Shown here: piece by piece, positions 4,928 to 52,296 of the stretch
Numbering within the stretch: the stretch's first letter is position 1
Layout: each line of letters begins with the position of its first letter
IMG/VR virus record: IMGVR_UViG_2537561965_000009
Source: a virus
Lineage: Duplodnaviria > Heunggongvirae > Uroviricota > Caudoviricetes
Direction: 5' to 3' (one strand)
Length of the DNA: 52,523 bases
Program-made: the position numbers and the translations under genes
The notes under the pieces: model-generated
What the model was told of the DNA's origin: nothing
Databases searched by the model: none
The model's input: the letters and a program-made list of their open reading frames with translations, nothing else

Positions 4928-5146
4928 TTAACGCGGGTATGTAACCATTCTGGCAATGCTTAATGCCGCTGCTTTTTCCAGCCTGGTGATATCCTGCTCC
5001 AGAGCGGACAGATTTTCAGCCTGCTTAGTCCTGGCTTCATTGGCCCATTTCAGATCCTGCGCTGCATTAATTTTCTGGCGCATCCACTCATAAAGTTCAT
5101 CATCGGTATAGTCTGGCGCGATGATGACGGGTTCTCGTTTCTGCAT
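4928..5146 (-). CDS. ydfC: YdfC-like small prophage protein
   Basis: 72-aa ORF, same size and operon position as ydfC in the Qin dicB operon. Confidence 0.5.
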   Translation of the reverse strand: MQKREPVIIAPDYTDDELYEWMRQKINAAQDLKWANEARTKQAENLSALEQDITRLEKAAALSIARMVTYPR

Positions 5147-5627: not shown

Positions 5628-5635
5628 GGTTGGTA
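5628..5635. repeat. target-site duplication GGTTGGTA (left copy)
   Basis: 8-bp direct repeat identical to 8335-8342, immediately flanking the IS66-family element. Confidence 0.8.
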
Positions 5636-5688
5636 GTAACCGGCTCATTTAAACCGTCTGGTCTGTTTCCTCCGGCTCTACAAAAATA

Positions 5689-6366
5689 ATGTCCATCATT
5701 TTTAATGGACACTATCGTATGAAACACCGGACCTGGATCACTGAAGCTTTACGTCTTCACTTTGAAGAACATTTACCCCGGGTTGTGGCCGGGCGTCGCC
5801 TGGGTGTACCAAAATCAACAGTTTGTAGTATGTTCGTGCGCTTTCGGAGAGCTGGCCTTTCGTGGCCTTTGCCCGCAGGCATGTCGGAGCAGGAACTTGA
5901 TGCCTGCCTTTACGGACAATTTTCCACGGTACCAGTCGTACGTCCTGAAAGCACCGTTATATCCGAAGCCCCCGTGGTAAAAAAACGTCCCCGGCGGCCC
6001 AACTTCCCTTATGAGTTTAAAATCGCCTTAGTGGAGCAGTCACTGCAGCCCGGAGCCTGTGTGGCGCAGATCGCCCGGGAAAACGGAATCAACGATAACC
6101 TGCTCTTCAACTGGCGCCATCAATACCGGAAAGGTGGCCTGCTGCCTTCCGGAAAAAATATGCCGGCACTGCTTCCCGTGACGTTAACGCCGGAGCCGGA
6201 TAATAAAATCCCGGCCCCCGCACAGGAACCAGAGCAGATAAATACACCGTCCGACAGTCTGTGTTGTGAGCTGGTTCTGCCGGCCGGAACTCTCAGGCTT
6301 AAAGGTAAACTGACGCCGGCGTTATTACAGACACTTATCCGCGAAATAAAAGGGAGCAGCCACTGA
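5689..6366 (+). CDS. IS66-family accessory protein TnpA (HTH)
   Basis: 225-aa ORF with IS3/IS66 orfA-like HTH segment FKIALVEQSLQPGACVAQIARENGINDNLLFNWRHQYRKGG; stop overlaps start of tnpB. Confidence 0.7.
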   Translation: MSIIFNGHYRMKHRTWITEALRLHFEEHLPRVVAGRRLGVPKSTVCSMFVRFRRAGLSWPLPAGMSEQELDACLYGQFSTVPVVRPESTVISEAPVVKKRPRRPNFPYEFKIALVEQSLQPGACVAQIARENGINDNLLFNWRHQYRKGGLLPSGKNMPALLPVTLTPEPDNKIPAPAQEPEQINTPSDSLCCELVLPAGTLRLKGKLTPALLQTLIREIKGSSH

Positions 6367-6713
6367 TGATATCTCTCCCTGCAGGTTCGCGTATCTGGCT
6401 GGTTGCAGGTATCACCGATATGCGAAATGGCTTTAACGGCCTGGCATCAAAAGTTCAGAACGTCCTGAAGGATGACCCGTTCTCCGGACACCTGTTCATC
6501 TTCCGCGGACGCCGGGGTGACCAGATAAAAGTGTTGTGGGCTGACAGTGACGGACTGTGCCTCTTCACCAAACGCCTGGAGCGGGGCCGCTTCGTCTGGC
6601 CAGTCACCCGTGACGGCAAGGTGCACCTTACTCCGGCTCAGTTATCCATGCTTCTTGAAGGTATCAACTGGAAGCACCCGAAACGAACGGAACGCGCTGG
6701 AATCCGCATATAA
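6366..6713 (+). CDS. IS66-family TnpB
   Basis: 115-aa ORF MISLPAGSRIWLVAGITDMRNGFNGL... characteristic of IS66 orfB. Confidence 0.8.
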   Translation: MISLPAGSRIWLVAGITDMRNGFNGLASKVQNVLKDDPFSGHLFIFRGRRGDQIKVLWADSDGLCLFTKRLERGRFVWPVTRDGKVHLTPAQLSMLLEGINWKHPKRTERAGIRI

Positions 6714-6732
6714 CCCGTTGTAAAGTGAGGAT

Positions 6733-8304
6733 ATGGACACCTCACTTGCTCATGAGAACGCCCGCCTGCGGGCACTGTTGCAGACGCAACAGGACACCAT
6801 CCGCCAGATGGCCGAATATAACCGCCTGCTCTCACTGCGGGTGGCGGCTTATGCTTCCGAAATCAACCGGCTGAAGGCGCTGGTTGCGAAACTGCAACGT
6901 ATGCAGTTCGGTAAAAGCTCAGAAAAACTTCGTGCAAAAACCGAACGGCAGATACAGGAAGCACAGGAGCGAATCAGCGCACTTCAGGAAGAAATGGCGG
7001 AAACGCTGGGTGAGCAATATGACCCGGTACTGCCATCCGCCCTGCGCCAGTCTTCAGCCCGTAAACCGTTACCGGCCTCACTTCCCCGTGAAACCCGGGT
7101 TATCCGGCCGGAAGAGGAATGCTGTCCTGCCTGTGGTGGTGAACTCAGTTCTCTGGGATGTGATGTGTCAGAGCAACTGGAGCTTATCAGCAGCGCCTTT
7201 AAGGTTATCGAAACACAACGTCCGAAACAGGCCTGTTGCCGGTGCGACCATATCGTGCAGGCACCAGTACCTTCAAAACCCATTGCACGCAGTTATGCCG
7301 GAGCGGGGCTTCTGGCCCATGTTGTCACCGGGAAATATGCAGACCATCTGCCGTTATACCGCCAGTCAGAAATATACCGTCGTCAGGGAGTGGAGCTGAG
7401 CCGTGCCACACTGGGGCGCTGGACAGGTGCTGTTGCTGAACTGCTGGAGCCGCTGTATGACGTCCTGCGCCAGTATGTGCTGATGCCCGGTAAAGTCCAT
7501 GCTGATGATATCCCCGTCCCGGTCCAGGAGCCGGGCAGCGGTAAAACCCGGACAGCCCGGCTGTGGGTCTACGTCCGTGATGACCGTAACGCCGGTTCAC
7601 AGATGCCCCCGGCGGTCTGGTTCGCGTACAGTCCGGACCGGAAAGGTATCCATCCACAAAATCACCTGGCCGGTTACAGCGGTGTGCTTCAGGCCGATGC
7701 TTACGGTGGTTACCGGGCGTTATACGAATCCGGCAGAATAACGGAAGCCGCGTGTATGGCTCATGCCCGGAGAAAAATCCACGATGTGCATGCAAGAGCG
7801 CCCACCTACATCACCACGGAAGCCCTGCAGCGTATCGGTGAACTGTATGCCATCGAGGCAGAGGTCCGGGGCTGTTCAGCAGAACAGCGTCTGGCGGCAA
7901 GAAAAGCCAGAGCCGCGCCACTGATGCAGTCACTGTATGACTGGATACAGCAACAGATGAAAACACTGTCGCGTCACTCAGATACGGCAAAAGCGTTCGC
8001 ATACCTGCTGAAACAGTGGGATGCACTGAACGTGTACTGCAGTAATGGCTGGGTGGAAATCGACAACAACATCGCAGAGAACGCCTTACGGGGAGTGGCC
8101 GTAGGCCGGAAAAACTGGATGTTCGCGGGTTCCGACAGCGGTGGTGAACATGCGGCGGTGTTGTACTCGCTGATCGGCACATGCCGTCTGAACAATGTGG
8201 AGCCAGAAAAGTGGCTGCGTTACGTCATTGAACATATCCAGGACTGGCCGGCAAACCGGGTACGCGATCTGTTGCCCTGGAAAGTTGATCTGAGCTCTCA
8301 GTAA
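6733..8304 (+). CDS. IS66-family transposase TnpC
   Basis: 523-aa ORF with N-terminal coiled-coil and Cys-rich CPACG...CCRC region typical of IS66 transposases. Confidence 0.85.
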
Positions 8305-8334
8305 ATATCAATACGGTTCTGACGAGTCGCTTAC

Positions 8335-8342
8335 GGTTGGTA
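8335..8342. repeat. target-site duplication GGTTGGTA (right copy)
   Basis: Identical to 5628-5635. Confidence 0.8.
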
Positions 8343-8349
8343 TGGGAAA

Positions 8350-8378
8350 ACTATAGGAAATGCCTAATTACTTGTCAA
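8350..8378 (-). promoter_or_regulatory. candidate leftward early promoter (PL-like)
   Basis: On the minus strand TTGACA (8378-8373), 17-bp spacer, TATAGT (8355-8350); overlaps operator-like palindromes; predicted start about 8343, right at the IS66 insertion point. Confidence 0.5.
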
Positions 8379-8395
8379 TAGGCTATGCCTAATAA
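8358..8395. promoter_or_regulatory. operator-like palindromes (OL-like)
   Basis: ATAGGCTATGCCTAAT and TGCCTAAT half-sites; the 22-bp TTGTCAATAGGCTATGCCTAAT is the exact reverse complement of 9016-9037 on the other side of the repressor gene. Confidence 0.55.
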
Positions 8396-8486
8396 TTTGG
8401 GCGCGACCTAATAGGTGATGGTTTGTGGGAGAGGTAGTAGGAGTTAACTAACGGGAACTAGGAATTTCCCGTCGGACCATATAAGT

Positions 8487-8963
8487 TTAAGTTCCTGTCT
8501 TGGTGATGTTCTGGCTTTTCCGTTTTGATTCTTGATTTTTCAGATAGTTAGCTACCTTCATTTCCATTGCGGCAATGTAGGCGCGAACGTCATGATCAAC
8601 CCAACTAGGCTCCGTAGCATTTCCAGATAAGAGGAAAGCCACAATTGCTCTTTTTTCATCAGAGGCGGCTTGATAAAGGCTGTTTATGTCTAAAAGTTCA
8701 CTTTTTGTATCTGAAGTGGATGGGGTTGGTATGGGGTATTCGTTAAGCCCCCAATGCTCTGGACCAACCACATCAGAAAAGAAACGCCATAGTTCTGGAA
8801 GTTTGTCTTTACTTATCGAACCTTTCTTAATCCAGTCATGGATTGATGGTGGTTGGACTTTGAAATGACGTGCGATTTCCGCCTTTGATTTGACGGCTCC
8901 TGATGCAATTTTTTTGTTAATGGCCTGCTCAATCGCTCGGCCTAAGTCTTTACCACTAAGCAT
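8487..8963 (-). CDS. prophage repressor, short HTH protein without LexA-like peptidase domain (RacR-like)
   Basis: 158-aa ORF with N-terminal HTH-like segment (AEIARHFKVQPPSIHDWIKKG); AGGAG SD; divergent from a cro-like gene and flanked by two operator sets. Confidence 0.65.
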   Translation of the reverse strand: MLSGKDLGRAIEQAINKKIASGAVKSKAEIARHFKVQPPSIHDWIKKGSISKDKLPELWRFFSDVVGPEHWGLNEYPIPTPSTSDTKSELLDINSLYQAASDEKRAIVAFLLSGNATEPSWVDHDVRAYIAAMEMKVANYLKNQESKRKSQNITKTGT

Positions 8964-9015
8964 TGCTTAATAGTCTCCTATGCGCATCGCGTTAGGCAAT
9001 CCCTACTCTCGATGT

Positions 9016-9060
9016 ATTAGGCATAGCCTATTGACAATTGCATTAGGCTAAGCCTAATAT
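9016..9060 (+). promoter_or_regulatory. OR-like operators with rightward promoter (PR-like)
   Basis: Palindromes ATTAGGCATAGCCTAT and the perfect 17-bp ATTAGGCTAAGCCTAAT; TTGACA at 9031-9036 and TAATAT at 9055-9060 (18-bp spacer) upstream of the cro-like gene. Confidence 0.55.
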
Positions 9061-9087
9061 TGTTGCGTGTTTTTTGGAGTTCATTCG

Positions 9088-9411
9088 ATGAAAAAAGATA
9101 ACTATTCATTCAAACGAGCTTGTGCTGTTGTCGGTGGGCAATCAGCAATGGCTAGGCTTTTAGGTGTATCTCCTCCAAGCGTAAATCAATGGATCAAAGG
9201 TGTACGTCAGTTGCCTGCTGAGAGATGTCCTGCGATTGAACGAGCAACAAAAGGTGGTGTCCTGTGTGAAGAACTTCGTCCTGATGTTGATTGGACATAC
9301 TTACGACGCTCGTCATGTTATTCGCAGAATATGTCGATGAAGCAACCAAATGACGAAAACGATCATACCCGAAGCATCAAGAGGCAAATGATTCATGAAA
9401 ATCAAACATGA
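9088..9411 (+). CDS. ydaS: Cro-like HTH regulator (YdaS-like)
   Basis: 107 aa from ATG 9088 with GGAG SD; MKKDNYSFKRACAVVGGQSAMARLLGVSPPSVNQWIKGVRQLPAERCPAIE recognised as YdaS-like. Confidence 0.65.
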   Translation: MKKDNYSFKRACAVVGGQSAMARLLGVSPPSVNQWIKGVRQLPAERCPAIERATKGGVLCEELRPDVDWTYLRRSSCYSQNMSMKQPNDENDHTRSIKRQMIHENQT

Positions 9412-9820
9412 GCACATCCGCATGGCGATGAATGCTTGGGCATACCCTGATGGTGAGAAAGTTCCTGCAGCTGAAATAGCCCGGACTTATTTCGAACTGG
9501 GGATGACGTTCCCTGAACTGTACGACGACAGCCATCCGGAAGCCCTGGCCCGTAATACACAGAAAATTTTCCGTTGGCTGGATAAAGACACCCCTGATGC
9601 TGTTGAAAAAATTCAGGCTCTGTTACCGGCGATCGAAAAGGCAATGCCGCCTCTGCTGGTGGCCCGTATGCGCAGTCACAGCTCTGAGTATTACCGGGAG
9701 ATTGTCGAACGGCGGGATCGGCTGGTGAAGGATGTCGACGATTTTGTTGCGTCAGCGGTTGTTTTGTATGACCAGATGAATCGCGGCGGCCCGGCAGGGA
9801 ATGCTGTGGTGATGCACTAA
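9395..9820 (+). CDS. ydaT: YdaT-like protein
   Basis: 141-aa ORF overlapping the end of the ydaS-like gene; size and position match ydaT of Rac-type immunity regions. Confidence 0.5.
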   Translation: MKIKHEHIRMAMNAWAYPDGEKVPAAEIARTYFELGMTFPELYDDSHPEALARNTQKIFRWLDKDTPDAVEKIQALLPAIEKAMPPLLVARMRSHSSEYYREIVERRDRLVKDVDDFVASAVVLYDQMNRGGPAGNAVVMH

Positions 9821-14704: not shown

Positions 14705-15070
14705 ATGACTGAACGCATAGAATTTGTTTTGCCTTACCCGCCAACGGTGAACACTTACTGGCGACGTCGTGGCAGCACATATTTTGTATCAAAAGCCGGT
14801 GAGCGTTATCGCCGTGATGTGGCGCTTATTGTTCGCCAGCAGCGGCTGAAATTAAACCTGTCCGGAAGGCTGGCGATAAAGATTATTGCAGAGCCACCGG
14901 ATAAACGTCGTCGTGACCTGGACAATATCCTGAAAGCACCACTGGATGCGCTGACGCATGCCGGACTTCTCATAGACGACGAGCAGTTTGATGAAATCAA
15001 TATTGTGCGCGGTCAGCGCGTTCCTGGGGGGCGGCTGGGCGTGAAGATTTACAAAATTGAGAGTGAGTGA
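14705..15070 (+). CDS. rusA: Holliday junction resolvase RusA
   Basis: 121-aa ORF MTERIEFVLPYPPTVNTYWRRRG... with the RusA signature; overlaps the upstream stop. Confidence 0.85.
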   Translation: MTERIEFVLPYPPTVNTYWRRRGSTYFVSKAGERYRRDVALIVRQQRLKLNLSGRLAIKIIAEPPDKRRRDLDNILKAPLDALTHAGLLIDDEQFDEINIVRGQRVPGGRLGVKIYKIESE

Positions 15071-15624
15071 TCGTAAATATGATATATCCGGAAATTACAG
15101 GCAAAAGCGGCGAGCATTTACGTCTAAAAACGCTGGAAGCCGTCTGGATCCAGGGGAAATTACGGATGTGGGGGCGTTGGTCGTACATAGGTGGTGGCAA
15201 ACCAGGAAATATGTTCAATCAGTTGCTGGCATCCAAAACACTTACAAAAACTGCGATCAATGAAGCTCTGCGCAGAATAAAAAAATCAGGGATTGATAAA
15301 ACTGAGCTGGAAGCGTTTTTGCGTGAGATGATCAACAGCAAGCAAAAGAGCGGGCTGGCTTATTGTACTGATGCCGAGGCGTTATGTATCGATCGGGTAA
15401 TTAGTAAAGTGTTGGCAGAGCATCCGGGATTGATTTGTATCCTCCGACAAAGATATGAAGGGCTGGGAATGAGCAAGCTGAAAATGGCAGAACAGTTAAA
15501 AAAGAATCACCCTGACTGGAGCCTGAAAACTTGTAGAAATCGCATTGATGTTTGGTTGGCGATGGCTGAAACCATGCTTTTCCTTCCAATGTGCGTGGCA
15601 CTTCGGTGCTTTTCTGATAACTGA
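15067..15624 (+). CDS. late-gene antiterminator Q-like protein
   Basis: 185-aa ORF (GTG 15067 or ATG 15079) directly after rusA and before the late/lysis region; contains an RMWGRWS motif reminiscent of Q-type antiterminators; the call is mainly positional. Confidence 0.5.
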   Translation: MIVNMIYPEITGKSGEHLRLKTLEAVWIQGKLRMWGRWSYIGGGKPGNMFNQLLASKTLTKTAINEALRRIKKSGIDKTELEAFLREMINSKQKSGLAYCTDAEALCIDRVISKVLAEHPGLICILRQRYEGLGMSKLKMAEQLKKNHPDWSLKTCRNRIDVWLAMAETMLFLPMCVALRCFSDN

Positions 15625-18067: not shown

Positions 18068-19117
18068 ATGGCTAATACTGTAAAAATATCCAGTTGTGAG
18101 TTAATCAACGCTGATTGCCTGGAATTTATCCAGACCTTACCGGAAAACTCTGTCGATCTTATAGTCACAGACCCGCCATACTTTAAAGTGAAACCCGAGG
18201 GCTGGGATAACCAGTGGAAGGGCGACGATGATTACCTGAAGTGGCTGGACCAGTGTCTGGCGCAGTTCTGGCGGGTGCTGAAACCTGTCGGAAGTCTTTA
18301 CCTGTTCTGTGGTCATCGCCTGGCATCTGATATCGAAATCATGATGCGTGAACGCTTCAGTGTGCTGAACCATATTATCTGGGCGAAGCCGTCCGGACGC
18401 TGGAACGGATGCAACAAGGAAAGCCTGCGGGCGTATTTCCCCGCCACAGAGCGCATTCTGTTCGCGGAACATTATCAGGGGCCGTATCGTCCGAAAGATG
18501 CCGGGTATGCGGCGAAGGGCAGTGCACTGAAACAGCATGTGATGGCCCCGCTGATTTCTTACTTTCGTGATGCGCGCGCGGCCCTGGGGATAACGGCAAA
18601 ACAGATTGCAGATGCCACAGGAAAGAAAAACATGGTGTCGCACTGGTTCAGTGCCAGTCAGTGGCAGCTACCGAACGAAAGCGATTATCTGAAATTACAG
18701 TCGCTGTTTGCCCGGGTGGCAGAAGAGAAACATCAGCGCGGTGAACTGGAAAAGCCCCACCACCAGCTGGTGGATACGTATACGTCACTGAACCGGCAGT
18801 ATGTGGAGCTGCAGAGTGAATATAAGCATCTGCGGCGGTATTTTGGTGTGACGGCGCAGGTGCCGTACACGGATGTGTGGACACATAAACCGGTGCAGTT
18901 CTATCCCGGGAAACATCCGTGCGAAAAACCGGCAGAAATGCTGCAGCAGATAATCAGCGCAAGCAGTCGTCCGGGAGACCTGGTTGCAGATTTTTTTATG
19001 GGCTCAGGTTCAACGGTAAAAGCTGCACTGGCGCTCGGGCGTCGTGCGATTGGCGTTGAACTGGAGACCGGACGTTTTGAGCAGACAGTCAGGGAAGTTC
19101 AGGATTTAATCGTTTGA
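18068..19117 (+). CDS. DNA methyltransferase (N6-adenine/N4-cytosine, beta class), apparently orphan
   Basis: 349-aa ORF with motif IV DPPY near the N-terminus and motif I FFMGSGST near the C-terminus; no adjacent restriction endonuclease gene seen. Confidence 0.8.
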   Translation: MANTVKISSCELINADCLEFIQTLPENSVDLIVTDPPYFKVKPEGWDNQWKGDDDYLKWLDQCLAQFWRVLKPVGSLYLFCGHRLASDIEIMMRERFSVLNHIIWAKPSGRWNGCNKESLRAYFPATERILFAEHYQGPYRPKDAGYAAKGSALKQHVMAPLISYFRDARAALGITAKQIADATGKKNMVSHWFSASQWQLPNESDYLKLQSLFARVAEEKHQRGELEKPHHQLVDTYTSLNRQYVELQSEYKHLRRYFGVTAQVPYTDVWTHKPVQFYPGKHPCEKPAEMLQQIISASSRPGDLVADFFMGSGSTVKAALALGRRAIGVELETGRFEQTVREVQDLIV

Positions 19118-24408: not shown

Positions 24409-24930
24409 ATGAATATCGTGCCACTTAATTACAAAGGTGAAATTGTCAGTTTCAACACTGATGGTTGGATCAACGTCACAGGTGTTGCTGAGAGATTTGG
24501 GAAACGCATTGATAACTGGATGCGTTTGGCAGAAACGCTTGAATACGTTCGTGCTTTAGACGAAGCGTTGACCGGGAAAGAATCTCAAATTTTACATCCC
24601 TCACAATCGAGGTATGTAAAAACCAGCAAGGCACGAAAGGACAGGGGTGGTGGTACGTGGCTACATCCAAAACTTTCAGTTGCATTTGCCCGTTGGTGTG
24701 ATGCTCGTTTTGCTGTGTGGTGCGACCTGCACATTGATAGTCTGCTTCGCGGTGAACTGACTGAGCAGCAGAAATATGAGCAAGCATGTCGCATTCGCGA
24801 TGACCGGAAATCAAAAGCCAGCAATGGGGCAAGAGAGATGGCTCGCTGGCGATGGGATAAGCCGGTTATTGAAGCAAATGTTGAGTACTGGCGCGAGCAA
24901 CTGCAGTTGACTCTCGATATCGCGTGCTGA
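24409..24930 (+). CDS. KilA-N domain protein
   Basis: 173-aa ORF; N-terminal region ...GWINVTGVAERFGKRIDNWMRL...GGGTWLHPKLSVAFARWCDARFAVW matches the KilA-N DNA-binding domain pattern. Confidence 0.7.
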   Translation: MNIVPLNYKGEIVSFNTDGWINVTGVAERFGKRIDNWMRLAETLEYVRALDEALTGKESQILHPSQSRYVKTSKARKDRGGGTWLHPKLSVAFARWCDARFAVWCDLHIDSLLRGELTEQQKYEQACRIRDDRKSKASNGAREMARWRWDKPVIEANVEYWREQLQLTLDIAC

Positions 24931-36669: not shown

Positions 36670-37085
36670 GTTTTGCCCTGAAACTGGCGCGTGAGATGGG
36701 GCGACCCGACTGGCGTGCCATGCTTGCCGGGATGTCATCCACGGAGTATGCCGACTGGCACCGCTTTTACAGTACCCATTATTTTCATGATGTTCTGCTG
36801 GATATGCACTTTTCCGGGCTGACGTACACCGTGCTCAGCCTGTTTTTCAGCGATCCGGATATGCATCCGCTGGATTTCAGTCTGCTGAACCGGCGCGAGG
36901 CTGACGAAGAGCCTGAAGATGATGTGCTGATGCAGAAAGCGGCAGGGCTTGCCGGAGGTGTCCGCTTTGGCCCGGACGGGAATGAAGTTATCCCCGCTTC
37001 CCCGGATGTGGCGGACATGACGGAGGATGACGTAATGCTGATGACAGTATCAGAAGGGATCGCAGGAGGAGTCCGGTATGGCTGA
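36247..37085 (+). CDS. T: tail assembly chaperone G-T fusion via programmed -1 ribosomal frameshift
   Basis: Slippery heptamer G GGA AAG at 36645-36651 near the end of G; the -1 frame continues as VFDGELSFALKLAREMGRPDW... (lambda T) to the stop at 37085. Confidence 0.8.
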
Positions 37086-39639
37086 ACCGGTAGGCGATCT
37101 GGTCGTTGATTTGAGTCTGGATGCGGCCAGATTTGACGAGCAGATGGCCAGAGTCAGGCGTCATTTTTCCGGTACGGAAAGTGATGCGAAAAGAACAGCG
37201 GCAGTCGTTGAACAGTCGCTGAGCCGACAGGCGCTGGCTGCACAGAAAGCGGGGATTTCCGTCGGGCAGTATAAAGCCGCCATGCGTATGCTGCCTGCAC
37301 AGTTCACCGACGTGGCCACGCAGCTTGCAGGCGGGCAAAGTCCGTGGCTGATCCTGCTGCAACAGGGGGGGCAGGTGAAGGACTCCTTCGGCGGGATGAT
37401 CCCCATGTTCAGGGGGCTTGCCGGTGCGATCACCCTGCCGATGGTGGGGGCCACCTCGCTGGCGGTGGCGACCGGTGCGCTGGCGTATGCCTGGTATCAG
37501 GGCAACTCAACCCTGTCCGATTTCAACAAAACGCTGGTCCTTTCCGGCAATCAGGCCGGGCTGACGGCAGATCGTATGCTGGTCCTGTCCAGAGCCGGGC
37601 AGGCGGCAGGGCTGACGTTTAACCAGACCAGCGAGTCACTCAGCGCACTGGTTAAGGCGGGGGTAAGCGGTGAGGCTCAGATTGCGTCCATCAGCCAGAG
37701 TGTGGCGCGTTTCTCCTCTGCATCCGGCGTGGAGGTGGACAAGGTCGCTGAAGCCTTCGGGAAGCTGACCACTGACCCGACGTCGGGGCTGACGGCGATG
37801 GCACGCCAGTTCCATAACGTGACGGCGGAGCAGATTGCGTATGTTGCTCAGTTGCAGCGTTCCGGCGATGAAGCCGGGGCATTGCAGGCGGCGAACGAGG
37901 CCGCAACGAAAGGGTTTGATGACCAGACCCGCCGCCTGAAAGAGAACATGGGCACGCTGGAGACCTGGGCAGACAGGACTGCGCGGGCATTCAAATCCAT
38001 GTGGGATGCGGTGCTGGATATTGATCGTCCTGATACCGCGCAGGAGATGCTGATTAAGGCAGAGGCTGCGTTTAAGAAAGCAGACGACATCTGGAATCTG
38101 CGCAAGGATGATTATTTTGTTAACGATGAAGCGCGGGCGCGTTACTGGGATGATCGTGAAAAGGCCCGTCTTGCGCTTGAAGCCGCCCGAAAGAAGGCTG
38201 AGCAGCAGACTCAACAGGACAAAAATGCGCAGCAGCAGAGCGATACCGAAGCGTCACGGCTGAAATATACCGAAGAGGCGCAGAAGGTTTACGAACGGCT
38301 GCAGACACCGCTGGAGAAATATACCGCCCGTCAGGAAGAACTGAACAAGGCACTGAAAGACGGGAAAATCCTGCAGGCAGATTACAACACGCTGATGGCG
38401 GCGGCGAAAAAGGATTATGAAGCGACGCTGAAAAAGCCGAAACAGTCCGGCGTGAAGGTGTCTGCGGGCGATCGTCAGGAAGACAGTGCTCATGCTGCCC
38501 TGCTGACGCTTCAGGCTGAACTCCGGACGCTGGAGAAGCATGCCGGAGCAAATGAGAAAATCAGCCAGCAGCGCCGGGATTTGTGGAAGGCGGAGAGTCA
38601 GTTCGCGGTACTGGAGGAGGCGGCGCAACGTCGCCAGCTGTCTGCACAGGAGAAATCCCTGCTGGCGCATAAAGATGAGACGCTGGAGTACAAACGCCAG
38701 CTGGCTGCACTTGGCGACAAGGTTACGTATCAGGAGCGCCTGAACGCGCTGGCGCAGCAGGCGGATAAATTCGCACAGCAGCAACGGGCAAAACGGGCCG
38801 CCATTGATGCGAAAAGCCGGGGGCTGACTGACCGGCAGGCAGAACGGGAAGCCACGGAACAGCGCCTGAAGGAACAGTATGGCGATAATCCGCTGGCGCT
38901 GAATAACGTCATGTCAGAGCAGAAAAAGACCTGGGCGGCTGAAGACCAGCTTCGCGGGAGCTGGATGGCAGGCCTGAAGTCCGGCTGGAGTGAGTGGGAA
39001 GAGAGCGCCACGGACAGTATGTCGCAGGTTAAAAGTGCAGCCACGCAGACCTTTGATGGTATTGCACAGAATATGGCGGCGATGCTGACCGGCAGTGAGC
39101 AGAACTGGCGCAGCTTTACCCGTTCCGTGCTGTCCATGATGACAGAAATTCTGCTTAAGCAGGCAATGGTGGGGATTGTCGGGAGTATCGGCAGCGCCAT
39201 TGGCGGGGCTGTTGGTGGCGGCGCATCCGCGTCAGGCGGTACAGCCATTCAGGCAGCTGCGGCGAAATTCCATTTTGCGACCGGGGGATTTACGGGAACC
39301 GGCGGCAAATATGAGCCAGCGGGGATTGTTCACCGTGGTGAATTTGTCTTCACGAAGGAGGCAACCAGCCGGATTGGCGTGGGGAATCTCTACCGGCTGA
39401 TGCGCGGCTATGCCACCGGTGGTTATGTCGGTGGCACCGGAAGTCCGGCGCAAATGCGGCGTTCAGAGGGTATCAGGTTTGAGCAGAACAACAACATGGT
39501 GATTCAGAACGACGGTACGAATGGTCTGCCAGGTCCACAGATGATGAAAGCAGTGTATGACATGGCCCGCAAGGGTGCCCGTGATGAAATTCAGACACAG
39601 ATGCGTGATGGTGGCCTGTTCTCCGGAGGTGGACGATGA
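37078..39639 (+). CDS. H: tape measure protein H
   Basis: 853-aa ORF; lambda H-like. Confidence 0.95.
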   Translation: MAEPVGDLVVDLSLDAARFDEQMARVRRHFSGTESDAKRTAAVVEQSLSRQALAAQKAGISVGQYKAAMRMLPAQFTDVATQLAGGQSPWLILLQQGGQVKDSFGGMIPMFRGLAGAITLPMVGATSLAVATGALAYAWYQGNSTLSDFNKTLVLSGNQAGLTADRMLVLSRAGQAAGLTFNQTSESLSALVKAGVSGEAQIASISQSVARFSSASGVEVDKVAEAFGKLTTDPTSGLTAMARQFHNVTAEQIAYVAQLQRSGDEAGALQAANEAATKGFDDQTRRLKENMGTLETWADRTARAFKSMWDAVLDIDRPDTAQEMLIKAEAAFKKADDIWNLRKDDYFVNDEARARYWDDREKARLALEAARKKAEQQTQQDKNAQQQSDTEASRLKYTEEAQKVYERLQTPLEKYTARQEELNKALKDGKILQADYNTLMAAAKKDYEATLKKPKQSGVKVSAGDRQEDSAHAALLTLQAELRTLEKHAGANEKISQQRRDLWKAESQFAVLEEAAQRRQLSAQEKSLLAHKDETLEYKRQLAALGDKVTYQERLNALAQQADKFAQQQRAKRAAIDAKSRGLTDRQAEREATEQRLKEQYGDNPLALNNVMSEQKKTWAAEDQLRGSWMAGLKSGWSEWEESATDSMSQVKSAATQTFDGIAQNMAAMLTGSEQNWRSFTRSVLSMMTEILLKQAMVGIVGSIGSAIGGAVGGGASASGGTAIQAAAAKFHFATGGFTGTGGKYEPAGIVHRGEFVFTKEATSRIGVGNLYRLMRGYATGGYVGGTGSPAQMRRSEGIRFEQNNNMVIQNDGTNGLPGPQMMKAVYDMARKGARDEIQTQMRDGGLFSGGGR

Positions 39640-50970: not shown

Positions 50971-51552
50971 CTTTATCAATGACTTATCTCCCGACTTCCC
51001 GCCTTGCTTTTCCTAAACAGAACAATCGTAGAATATTCTTGAAGGGTTAGATCGTCACTGTTTTCTGTTCGATACTGTGACATTCAGCACTTGATTCGCT
51101 ATGGATCTGACAGGAAGGTTTTGAGCGAAAATTTGCAGTTATTCAGTCGTTTTCTTATCGGTCACCATTATTCTTTTAGACATTGATCCTACAAAGCTGC
51201 CGCAAAGTTGGTGGTAGGAACTGAAGTTGCGTAGAGAAGGGGTCAATACCCGGAGGCAAACATGGGCTGGCAAAAGTGTAGCGGTATTAGGCGCAGCTAT
51301 TTAGCCTAGTTATGTTTTATGAAAACTTGATATCATATAAGTGTCTTACTTATTGGCTGTAAATAAGTTTTTCCTAAGGAATTGTTTCTTGAGTATCATT
51401 TGTAACTGTAACGGAATTTATAATCCTTTGCTTTATTGTTACGGTATTTTTTATCACACCCTATTTTTAGTGGTTTTTTATACTGAAGTTTGGCAAAGTG
51501 AACTTTATATACATATACTTCATCCTGGTTTCAGTTAAATTGGGTGGATGAT

Positions 51553-52296
51553 ATGGCAACTACATGTTCAGTTATATTGATTTTGGAGTCCTTTGATGTT
51601 TATTTCGGAAAAGAGAGTGTGTTTCTGGAGAGAGGTTCATCTGTACTTGTCGACTCTAGCTCTAGAGATTTTTTCCTGACATATCCTGAAAGAGTGATAG
51701 TGGCGGATTTTGGCGCTGAGTTTATTAGTCGCTATTTGAAAGCTAATAACTTAAGGGATATTTCTGATTGTAGGGAATATCCATCTTATTTAAAAATAAA
51801 CTTTGCTGACTTCAGTTTAATTAAAGGATTAATTAGTTGGGCTAATCACTGTGCTGAATACATAGAAATTTTTGATGAGTCTATTGCTTTTACATGTCTC
51901 TCTGCATTTTCTTCTGAAAAACAATTTGGAGTATTTCTGTTTGAATGTTTGAAAAGCACAGGGGCTAAAGTTAAAACGATTATTCATACGGATTTATCTG
52001 CACCATGGCGTCTTAAGGATATATCATCAAGATTATATCTCAGCGAAAGTTTACTAAAGAGGAAATTGAAAGAAGAGGGGGTATCATTCAGTAAGATCAT
52101 ACTTGATGAGAGGATGCAAATGGCTGAATATTTACTCTGCACTCGTTGTTATCCTATTAGTAAAGTAGCTAAGGTCTGTGGTTATGCCAGTGTCTCATAC
52201 TTTACTTATGTATTTAGACGTTATTTTGGTGTTTCTCCAAGTCAATACTCTCAGAGGAGTTCAGAAAGTAAAATTCTTACTCACCAGGGAATCTGA
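51553..52296 (+). CDS. AraC-family transcriptional regulator (AT-rich, outside the prophage)
   Basis: 247 aa from ATG 51553; C-terminal double-HTH region ...ISKVAKVCGYASVSYFTYVFRRYFGVSPSQY typical of AraC/XylS proteins; low-GC codon usage. Confidence 0.7.
   Translation: MATTCSVILILESFDVYFGKESVFLERGSSVLVDSSSRDFFLTYPERVIVADFGAEFISRYLKANNLRDISDCREYPSYLKINFADFSLIKGLISWANHCAEYIEIFDESIAFTCLSAFSSEKQFGVFLFECLKSTGAKVKTIIHTDLSAPWRLKDISSRLYLSESLLKRKLKEEGVSFSKIILDERMQMAEYLLCTRCYPISKVAKVCGYASVSYFTYVFRRYFGVSPSQYSQRSSESKILTHQGI

Follow-up and report, generated by a model that had tools for sequence, protein, structure and literature searches.

The window, that is the whole stretch of DNA that was analysed (52,523 nucleotides), contains what is very probably (roughly 0.88) the genetic switch, or immunity region, of a Rac-type lambdoid Escherichia coli prophage, with RacR as the CI analogue. 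This switch is mostly already known. A preliminary description of the DNA had read the locus as an immunity region with operator sets on both flanks of a repressor gene; the RacR family assignment, the YdaS and YdaT partners and six clustered sites bear out that interpretation, and the additions made here are minor. RacR binding, the half-site motif and the rightward promoter have been shown experimentally for the K-12 orthologue and are assigned to the present prophage by sequence match, the racR-ydaS-ydaT DNA being about 87% identical to the K-12 type. The experimental mapping of the right-hand sites, the motif and the ydaS promoter comes from K-12 only (2017-2022).

The repressor gene racR (8487-8963, minus strand) was assigned by NCBIfam family NF049929 and by DNA identity, and encodes a CI-like prophage repressor of 158 amino acids. 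The protein matched NF049929, the RacR equivalog, with 246.8 bits (cut-off 200) over residues 1-145, and was 92% identical to a K-12-type RacR (P0010). The DNA was 100% identical to many E. coli genomes, and the racR annotation was found on about 1,090 complete genomes of this species. A hairpin 3′ of the racR stop codon (about 8447-8470) was no more stable than its shuffles (z = -0.64), and no terminator is claimed.

The proposal that this repressor lacks a LexA-like autocleavage domain was upheld. RacR gave no Pfam match (E <= 0.01), hence none to Peptidase_S24, and no PHROG match, and its translation contains no Ala-Gly or Cys-Gly dipeptide, so that no such cleavage site is present in the linker. 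The single-sequence AF2 model was poor (pLDDT 49.6), and an alignment-based model (pLDDT 81.8) was used in its place. It was all-helical, with no beta strands, and predicted an HTH domain at the N terminus (about residues 1-75), joined through a disordered linker (about 78-92) to a C-terminal domain of three helices. Because it is without an S24 domain, RacR cannot autocleave. The top Foldseek matches in the PDB were lambda cI-NTD, Cro and XRE proteins, all non-significant (best E = 0.27), so that no known fold was assigned to the C-terminal domain, and phmmer returned weak matches to HTH cro/C1 chains (E about 1.4) and no solved relative by sequence. Structural similarity of RacR to XRE/CI-type HTH proteins has been described, and a RacR octamer reported (PMC11014345); in published work the C-terminal domain is helical and identified as the oligomerisation domain.

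The sequence features of the immunity region were confirmed as real and far beyond chance. The 22-mer TTGTCAATAGGCTATGCCTAAT at 8372-8393 recurs as its exact reverse complement at 9016-9037; the identity of this inverted repeat reaches 23 nt (8372-8394 and 9015-9037), and shuffles of the window gave 0 matches to it, even with three mismatches allowed. The 17-bp palindrome ATTAGGCTAAGCCTAAT, which is perfect, occupies 9042-9058. Both elements were present as first described, with coordinates off by one: the left copy of the repeat had been placed at 8373-8394 and the palindrome at 9041-9057. Five of the six ATTAGGC heptamers in the window fell within 8362-8393 and 9016-9058. With up to two mismatches, TTAGGC-N3-GCCTAA was matched six times in 52.5 kb (1.6 expected; six reached in 0 of 100 shuffles), and all six matches lay in two clusters, one on either side of the 158-aa gene, with motif cores starting at 8353, 8378 and 8397 on the left and at 8992, 9017 and 9043 on the right. 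The spacer was strictly 3 nt, spacers of 0, 1, 2, 4 and 5 nt giving 0-1 matches window-wide and none in the immunity region. Of the consensus originally put forward, ATTAGGC-N1-3-GCCTAAT, the half-site is therefore that of the K-12 footprints, but the N1-3 spacer was imprecise and is replaced by N3, because other spacer lengths give no match in the region. Motif matches at 4949, 5025 and 5245, each with three mismatches, were poor, lay within coding sequence and were dismissed as chance.

On the right-hand side, the sites agreed with those mapped in K-12. O1 (OR1; 9042-9058, ATTAGGC-TAA-GCCTAAT, 0 mismatches), predicted from K-12 equivalence, overlaps the -10 hexamer of PR (PydaS). O2 (9016-9032, ATTAGGC-ATA-GCCTATT) is fused to the PR -35 hexamer TTGACA. 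A fourth right-hand site (8991-9007, GTTAGGC-AAT-CCCTACT, two mismatches) lies over the upstream racR promoters, and O3 (8955-8971, core start 8956, ACTAAGC-ATT-GCTTAAT, three mismatches) overlaps the racR start codon, which reads CAT at 8961-8963 on the plus strand. In an alignment of alleles the core of the fourth site was invariant, O3 was identical in all alleles, and O2 was kept in K-12 save for one change in the spacer. The predicted PR (9031-9060, plus strand; promoter scan 10/12) consists of TTGACA at 9031-9036, 18 nt and TAATAT at 9055-9060. The same alignment placed the equivalent of the PracR3 -10 hexamer, belonging to the leaderless racR promoter, at 8972-8977 on the minus strand, where the sequence is GAGACT here versus GAGAAT in K-12; racR autoregulation may for this reason differ in strength from that in K-12.

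The positions of O1-O3 and the PydaS hexamers are consistent with the K-12 work, in which the half-site ATTAGGC was derived from DNase I footprints, O1 was protected at the lowest RacR concentration, O3 overlaps the racR ATG, and primer extension together with -10 mutagenesis located the PydaS hexamers TTGACA/TAATAT (PMC9638921). RacR binding and repression in K-12 were demonstrated by EMSA, ChIP and reporter assays (PMC5700373), and four inverted repeats have been counted in the literature (PMC11014345).

On the left-hand side, two operators and a promoter of the same design were predicted. OL1 (8377-8393, AATAGGC-TAT-GCCTAAT, one mismatch) is fused to the -35 hexamer of a PL-like promoter, such that O2 with its -35 hexamer is the exact mirror of OL1. 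OL2 (8352-8368, TATAGGA-AAT-GCCTAAT, two mismatches) is spaced 25 bp from OL1 centre-to-centre and overlaps the -10 hexamer. The predicted PL (8350-8378, minus strand; promoter scan 11/12) comprises TTGACA at 8378-8373, 17 nt and TATAGT at 8355-8350. A scan of 8250-9150 found exactly two sigma-70-like sites, one per strand and facing outward. The symmetric PL- and PR-like promoters with TTGACA of the preliminary description thus both appear in the scan, the PR hexamers being those of K-12 PydaS, and the putative PL with its operators is strongly supported by conservation across distant genera. A candidate OL3 (8396-8412, TTTGGGC-GCG-ACCTAAT, two mismatches), 19 bp from OL1, is degenerate and uncertain; it was confined to the Escherichia lineage, where K-12 has a weaker version, and distant loci have none.

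K-12 likewise has the left pair and PL (L003, 3130 and 3155). Across nine loci from five genera (Escherichia, Mixta, Proteus, Achromobacter and Pectobacterium), the left island TTAGGC..CCTATTG..TTAGGC..C.TA was invariant, while the surrounding DNA could not be aligned and the 3-nt spacers varied freely. The operator/-35/operator/-10 design of PL was conserved in the four genera other than Escherichia, and in Pectobacterium, as in E. coli, the left sites fall between the repressor operon and a DUF1391 gene, downstream of the former and upstream of the latter. In published RNA-seq, ydaG, ydaF, kilR, ydaE and racC rose 40-70-fold when RacR fell (PMC6765115). Conservation and these transcriptomic data together suggest that RacR controls OL/PL; a literature search found no paper describing or testing OL/PL of Rac.

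Conservation of the left island also bears on whether the 23-bp repeat might be a recent duplication or gene conversion, or the termini of a small racR cassette, with the left copy a functionless passenger. Over their 23 bp the copies match at every position here and at all but one in K-12, and distant relatives have only three right-hand sites, without the extra O2/-35 module on the right. Since the copies are near-identical and the distant relatives are without that module, some copying between the sides probably occurred in the Escherichia lineage. A passenger is nonetheless very improbable. Other genera, at 45-64% repressor identity, retain both the left operators and the design of their promoter, and there the flanks and 3-nt spacers have fully diverged and the left and right copies are non-identical; moreover, no target duplication surrounds 8372-9037, and the left -10 hexamer is intact in a promoter scoring 11/12.

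The neighbouring genes likewise fit a lambdoid switch. Directly to the right lies ydaS (9088-9411, plus strand), encoding a Cro-like HTH protein of 107 amino acids (PF15943, 3.8e-30; P22_Cro, PF14549, 1e-8; RefSeq annotation on identical DNA). It is followed by ydaT (9395-9820, plus strand), encoding a CII-like regulator of 141 amino acids (PF06254, 8.2e-11; RefSeq annotation), and an O-like replication gene, and a YdaT-type inverted repeat spans the ydaS/ydaT junction (9388-9405). Left of the switch are int, xis, exo, dicB and a DUF1391 gene. The prophage is of full length, more than 52 kb, and has genes for head, tail and lysis, and the same racR-ydaS-ydaT module is carried by a deposited phage genome.

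In view of these observations, a toxin-repressor cassette, or an atypical toxin-antitoxin one, is very improbable; the sole task of RacR would then be to keep the "toxins" YdaS and YdaT silent, and the repeats would serve autoregulation alone. The Pfam names of the partners (YdaS_toxin and YdaT_toxin) are in keeping with such a cassette, as is the lethality of RacR loss in K-12, where racR is essential because ydaS/ydaT expression is lethal (PMC5700373, PMC5700377). However, racR, ydaS and ydaT occupy the cI, cro and cII positions of a full-length lambdoid prophage, with replication genes and Q after them, a second operator/promoter set faces the recombination/excision arm, and the module recurs in the deposited phage genome. 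The toxin-antitoxin status of YdaS/YdaT has itself been disputed: Jobling's critique (PMC5917428) and later work (PMC9986795) regard YdaS as the equivalent of Cro and YdaT as that of CII, and gene context argues against a type II module.

In the switch model that these data favour, RacR would bind as a dimer to 17-bp operators with the pattern ATTAGGC-N3-GCCTAAT. Together, O1, O2, O3 and the fourth right-hand site would repress PR/PydaS, which is predicted to read ydaS, ydaT and, judging from gene order, the replication genes; the right-hand sites would also autoregulate the racR promoters, including the one giving the leaderless transcript. OL1 and OL2, plus the doubtful third site, would cover the near-consensus PL, which is predicted to fire away from racR into an early-left operon of a DUF1391/ydaF-like gene, dicB, exonuclease, xis and int. 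Both promoters appear to share one design, with one operator fused to the -35 hexamer and another overlapping the -10, and it is this design that makes the two sides look like mirror images. By inference only, a RacR octamer might bridge OL and OR over about 0.64 kb.

In the present copy, the left arm of this circuit is interrupted by ISCro1 (IS66 family; 5636-8334, plus strand), recognised by its GTAA... terminal repeats, by comparison with an uninterrupted genome and by an ISCro1 annotation. The element is flanked by 8-bp target duplications, GGTTGGTA, at 5628-5635 and 8335-8342, and sits between PL and the early-left genes (DUF1391, dicB, exonuclease, xis and int). The ISCro1 junction of this prophage had no match in the complete E. 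coli genome collection. With ISCro1 lying a few bases past the predicted start of PL transcription, the early-left operon of this copy is probably no longer coupled to the switch.

As RacR is without autocleavage, derepression would come about through a lower level or activity of RacR or through a factor encoded elsewhere. The preliminary description had suggested an antirepressor or another route, and a dedicated, LexA-controlled one of the Gifsy/186/N15 style would bind RacR and induce the prophage. Such a route could account for a short repressor with neither S24 domain nor Ala-Gly site, and Lemire et al. (PMC3121763) named RacR and DicA as candidates for antirepressor control, counting them with the short repressors that probably cannot be cleaved; the non-significant Foldseek neighbours of RacR also included the Salmonella phage repressor 5d4z. 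The searches, however, left the proposal unsupported, and we consider it unlikely. No Ant, Bro or Tum-type match to PHROG or Pfam was obtained in about 35 of the approximately 88 ORFs, a scan that took in the early regions on the left and right, the nin and post-lysis regions and a few further ORFs. Its lone candidate, a KilA-N domain protein encoded at 24409-24930, was counted in favour of the proposal but not accepted as an antirepressor.

Searches for LexA control were no more favourable. The LexA 20-mer consensus had no match in the window at up to three mismatches, and CTGT-N8-ACAG had two, one in the IS transposase gene and one in an 853-aa ORF (37078-39639), both with GC-rich spacers. 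The latter ORF is of tape-measure size. A uvrB-like box at 18076-18095, which emerged from a relaxed scan, falls within the opening codons of a DNA methylase gene and was rejected as an induction module. Altogether, no intergenic LexA box and no convincing LexA-controlled module was found within the 52.5-kb window. Published work also speaks against a dedicated antirepressor, as the homologous non-cleavable PaaR2 system was reported to be unresponsive to mitomycin C (PMC8630535) and excision of K-12 Rac follows a simple RacR deficit (PMC11014345). An antirepressor could be supplied by another prophage, outside the window.

In relatives, from Pectobacterium, Achromobacter and others, the same DNA-binding domain and operators go with a fused S24 peptidase; three of them (P0101, P0102 and P0114) matched PF00717 in the same Pfam search. 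Such RacR-S24 relatives were not found described in a literature search. We tentatively propose, while regarding it as somewhat less than an even chance, a single immunity "chassis" of RacR DNA-binding domain, operators and OR plus OL/PL layout that accepts either of two swappable C-terminal modules, an S24 domain or a helical oligomerisation domain. Rac-type prophages would then have lost direct SOS sensing by domain swap and would now depend on another signal or a trans factor, with an unusually short octamer-bridged OL-OR loop (about 0.64 kb). If this were true, the left operators of Rac, which seem not to have been described before, would supply the half of the loop that was missing.

The switch determines the silence of Rac-type prophages, which occur in about one fifth of complete E. 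coli genomes. To its description the present analysis adds a defined left operator/promoter set, which the K-12 papers on the region between racR and ydaS do not cover; natural repressor chimeras, with or without S24, usable for testing the induction of non-cleavable repressors; and an IS element by which, in the present copy, the excision/recombination arm has probably been cut off from the switch.

Among known systems, RacR-YdaS-YdaT of K-12 Rac shares the gene family, gene order, ATTAGGC half-site, O1, O2, fourth site and O3, PydaS hexamers, and left pair with PL. It differs in the O1 spacer (TAA here, GTC in K-12) and in a shorter ydaS allele (107 amino acids here), and K-12 Rac is cryptic, whereas the prophage described here is full length, with PL cut from its operon by ISCro1. 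Gifsy GfoR/GtgR, 186 Tum and N15 AntC systems likewise pair a lambdoid prophage with a repressor of about 150 amino acids without an autocleavage motif, and RacR has been grouped with them (PMC3121763); in contrast to those systems, which have a LexA-controlled antirepressor, none was found here past the replication genes or in the other ORFs scanned.

Another known system is that of PaaR2 of CP-933P from E. coli O157:H7, a short, non-cleavable CI-like repressor with a reported octamer and a leaderless gene, in a system that also has four evenly spaced palindromes between divergent promoters and a YdaT-type inverted repeat at the ydaS/ydaT junction (PMC9986795). The CP-933P operators are of the GTTTAGTAA type, unlike those of RacR, and immunity specificity therefore differs. 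PaaR2 moreover shares its transcript with a toxin-antitoxin pair, PaaA2-ParE2, that is missing here.

The comparison with lambda is incomplete, since no repression of racR by YdaS was seen in K-12, a point at which YdaS departs from lambda Cro (PMC9638921). OL and OR of the RacR switch, unlike those of lambda, are just about 0.64 kb apart. Where lambda CI has an S24 peptidase/oligomerisation domain, RacR has a three-helix C-terminal domain in its place. Both switches nevertheless have a multi-site OR with PRM and PR diverging from it, a further set of operators at PL beyond the repressor gene, a site spacing of 24-26 bp and a leaderless repressor transcript, and octamerisation has been reported for both repressors.

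The 158-aa ORF at 8487-8963 (minus strand) scored 246.8 bits against the NCBIfam RacR repressor equivalog model (cut-off 200) and had no matches in Pfam or PHROG. The DNA at 8335-9420 was 100% identical to racR and two downstream genes in numerous complete E. coli genomes. The racR module occurs in about 1,090 of 5,426 genomes as two main alleles, the window type and the K-12 type (~87% identity); one deposited phage genome, vB_EcoS-683R6, has the same module. The ORFs divergent from racR encode YdaS (PF15943, P22_Cro) and YdaT (PF06254) and are followed on the right by an O-like replication gene, a Ren-like gene and Q, while DUF1391, dicB, an exonuclease gene, xis and int lie to the left of racR. 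Judged by ORF sizes and order, and by features annotated under matching genomes, the window is a full-length lambdoid prophage with apparent head, tail and lysis genes. Its switch is the known RacR/YdaS/YdaT system, and the preliminary description of an immunity region was genuine and correctly read.

K-12 RacR forms three complexes with the racR-ydaS intergenic region in EMSA, and its binding there is borne out by ChIP and reporter repression as well (PMC5700373). From DNase I footprints and primer extension came the half-site ATTAGGC and three operators, O1-O3, that fit (T/A)TAGGC-n3-GCCTA(T/A), O1 covering the ydaS promoter (-35 TTGACA, -10 TAATAT) and O3 the ATG of racR, whose transcript is leaderless (PMC9638921). 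Four inverted repeats were counted, and RacR octamers reported, in a further study (PMC11014345). All four right-hand sites were found in the window allele with invariant half-sites (O1, 9042-9058; O2, 9016-9032; a fourth, 8991-9007; O3, 8955-8971); the motif and promoter picked out beforehand are therefore the published ones, rediscovered from sequence alone.

The 22-mer TTGTCAATAGGCTATGCCTAAT and its exact reverse complement were present as proposed, the right copy at 9016-9037 and the left copy at 8372-8393, one base lower than had been given. A repeat search extended the identity to 23 nt, and shuffled windows contained no match to the inverted repeat even with three mismatches allowed. 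The palindrome ATTAGGCTAAGCCTAAT was also present, its position corrected by one base to 9042-9058. The heptamer ATTAGGC occurs six times in 52.5 kb, and five of these copies sit in the two racR flanks. With up to two mismatches, TTAGGC-N3-GCCTAA matched six times in the whole window (8353, 8378 and 8397; 8992, 9017 and 9043) against 1.6 expected, a count reached in 0 of 100 shuffles. The spacer is strictly 3 nt rather than the 1-3 nt first proposed, because the signal was lost with spacers of 0, 1, 2, 4 or 5 nt. Operator centres are 25, 25-26 and 36 bp apart within sets, and those of OL1 (8377-8393) and O2 are 639 bp apart. The sequence ACCTAATAGGTGATGG (8406-8421) holds a small palindrome, ACCTA-A-TAGGT, overlaps a half-site of the doubtful OL3 (8396-8412) and differs by at most one substitution among Escherichia alleles, though neighbouring bases vary.

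A promoter scan of 8250-9150 returned exactly two sigma-70-like sites, in agreement with the symmetric PL- and PR-like promoters and TTGACA -35 hexamers originally described. The PL-like promoter runs leftward from 8378 to 8350 (TTGACA, 17 nt, TATAGT; 11/12 matches) and PR rightward over 9031-9060 (TTGACA, 18 nt, TAATAT; 10/12 matches); the mirror symmetry arises because the two have one common design. Right-hand sites number four in the Escherichia Rac lineage and three in distant relatives (window 9016-9037 compared with the OR regions of loci L011-L013). Because the extra O2-plus-(-35) module of Escherichia is an exact mirror of OL1-plus-(-35), its sequence suggests copying between the PL and PR sides, by duplication or gene conversion.

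In the alignment-based AF2 model of RacR (pLDDT 81.8), five helices make up the N-terminal domain and three the C-terminal domain, with a disordered linker (80-91) between them. The lack of a Pfam match and a helical model without strands bore out the absence of a LexA-like peptidase domain. Foldseek gave weak matches to XRE, Cro and lambda cI-NTD folds and no others, and no relative with a solved structure was found. The C-terminal domain is unlike that of lambda CI, yet serves oligomerisation (PMC11014345). The first 77 residues are 70-86% identical in the related repressors P0101, P0102 and P0114 and in Achromobacter ORFs, which carry Peptidase_S24 instead, and 65% identical in an Aeromonas ORF with Peptidase_S24; such relatives occur in the comparison loci L015 (2501-3601), L017 (2501-3589), L018 (2501-3178), L019 and L020. 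Four of these loci (L015, L017, L019 and L020; Achromobacter, Pectobacterium and P0102) share the TTAGGC-N3-GCCTAA operators of Rac at both OR and OL. The pattern looks like a natural swap of C-terminal modules between cleavable and non-cleavable repressors, and RacR is the non-cleavable form of a modular repressor, because the same N-terminal domain and operators occur with Peptidase_S24 in relatives.

RacR has been placed among short repressors likely to be under antirepressor control (Lemire et al.; PMC3121763). The antirepressor gene invoked in the preliminary description was not found among the ORFs scanned (about 35 of roughly 88 in the window), beyond a 173-aa KilA-N domain protein at 24409-24930, after the presumed lysis genes. 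Its match to a PHROG 'transcriptional regulator' family is confined to positions 1-173 of 273, and it is the sole antirepressor-like candidate among the ORFs scanned, a remote one. No convincing LexA box was found in the window. The sequence TACTGTAAAAATATCCAGTT (18076-18095) resembles the uvrB-type LexA box; it falls within the opening codons of a gene for an N6/N4 DNA methylase (18068-19117) and was rejected as an induction module, probably reflecting chance or methylase regulation instead.

Two further loci were recorded. The segment 15624-17437, which follows immediately on the gene for the antiterminator Q (15067-15624), encodes a 426-aa AbiLi-like AAA ATPase (PADLOC AbiLi, 9.6e-26) together with a 177-aa partner that lacks any match in the defence database, a probable abortive-infection moron. 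At the far right end, beyond large presumed tail fibre ORFs, an AraC-family regulator (51544-52296; HTH_AraC, HTH_18) is probably either cargo or part of the host flank.

The RacR literature searched contained no description of operators or of any promoter on the downstream side of racR, and one paper terms the RacR regulon, ydaFG operon included, uncharacterised. The left sites are kept in K-12, phage vB_EcoS-683R6, the O55:H7 allele and the 92% allele. A stronger test came from loci that the RacR protein retrieved in other taxa, namely Mixta, Proteus, Achromobacter, Pectobacterium, a metagenome-assembled genome of an unclassified Pseudomonadota and one further genome. All of them had a three-site cluster upstream of the repressor gene and a site pair exactly 25 bp apart downstream of the repressor operon. 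The left pairs always read ATTAGGC-nnn-GCCTAT-TGACA...ATTAGGC-nnn-nCCTAAtAT, an operator fused to a -35 and then an operator overlapping a -10, the predicted promoter being directed away from the repressor gene. In a nine-locus alignment, the invariant half-site bases form an island within otherwise unalignable DNA, and the 3-nt spacers vary freely.

Relative to an uninterrupted genome, the window carries ISCro1 (IS66 family) at 5636-8334, flanked by the 8-bp target duplication GGTTGGTA (5628-5635 and 8335-8342). The duplication starts 8 bp downstream of the -10 of PL, at or beside the position where transcription is predicted to begin. ISCro1 splits PL from DUF1391, dicB, the exonuclease gene, xis and int, and PL must cross 2.7 kb of IS, antisense to the IS genes, before the early-left operon, on which polarity is likely. 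Among the complete E. coli genomes of the collection, none shared the junction. A second example of an IS to the left of the repressor is ISKpn26 (IS5-like), which adjoins a divergent racR allele in E. coli NRZ96606 (L005 1-1254; 77.5% DNA identity over 39% of the query), where the left operator pair was not detectable.

What these data add to the known switch is its conserved left operator/promoter set, the existence of relatives with an S24 domain swap, and the disruption by an IS. The YdaT operator footprinted in CP-933P is TTGATT-N6-AATCAA (PMC9986795). At 9388-9405, ATGATTCATGAAAATCAA is one mismatch from it and occupies the same place, the ydaS/ydaT junction; such matches were not above chance window-wide, and only its position is suggestive of a YdaT operator. 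A drop in RacR raises ydaG, ydaF, kilR, ydaE and racC 40-70-fold by RNA-seq (PMC6765115). We regard OL/PL of Rac as real, and infer RacR binding there, because of the conserved left pairs, this response to RacR depletion and the analogous CP-933P switch, in which PL/OL has been demonstrated, with hexamers identical to those of its PR (PMC8630535).
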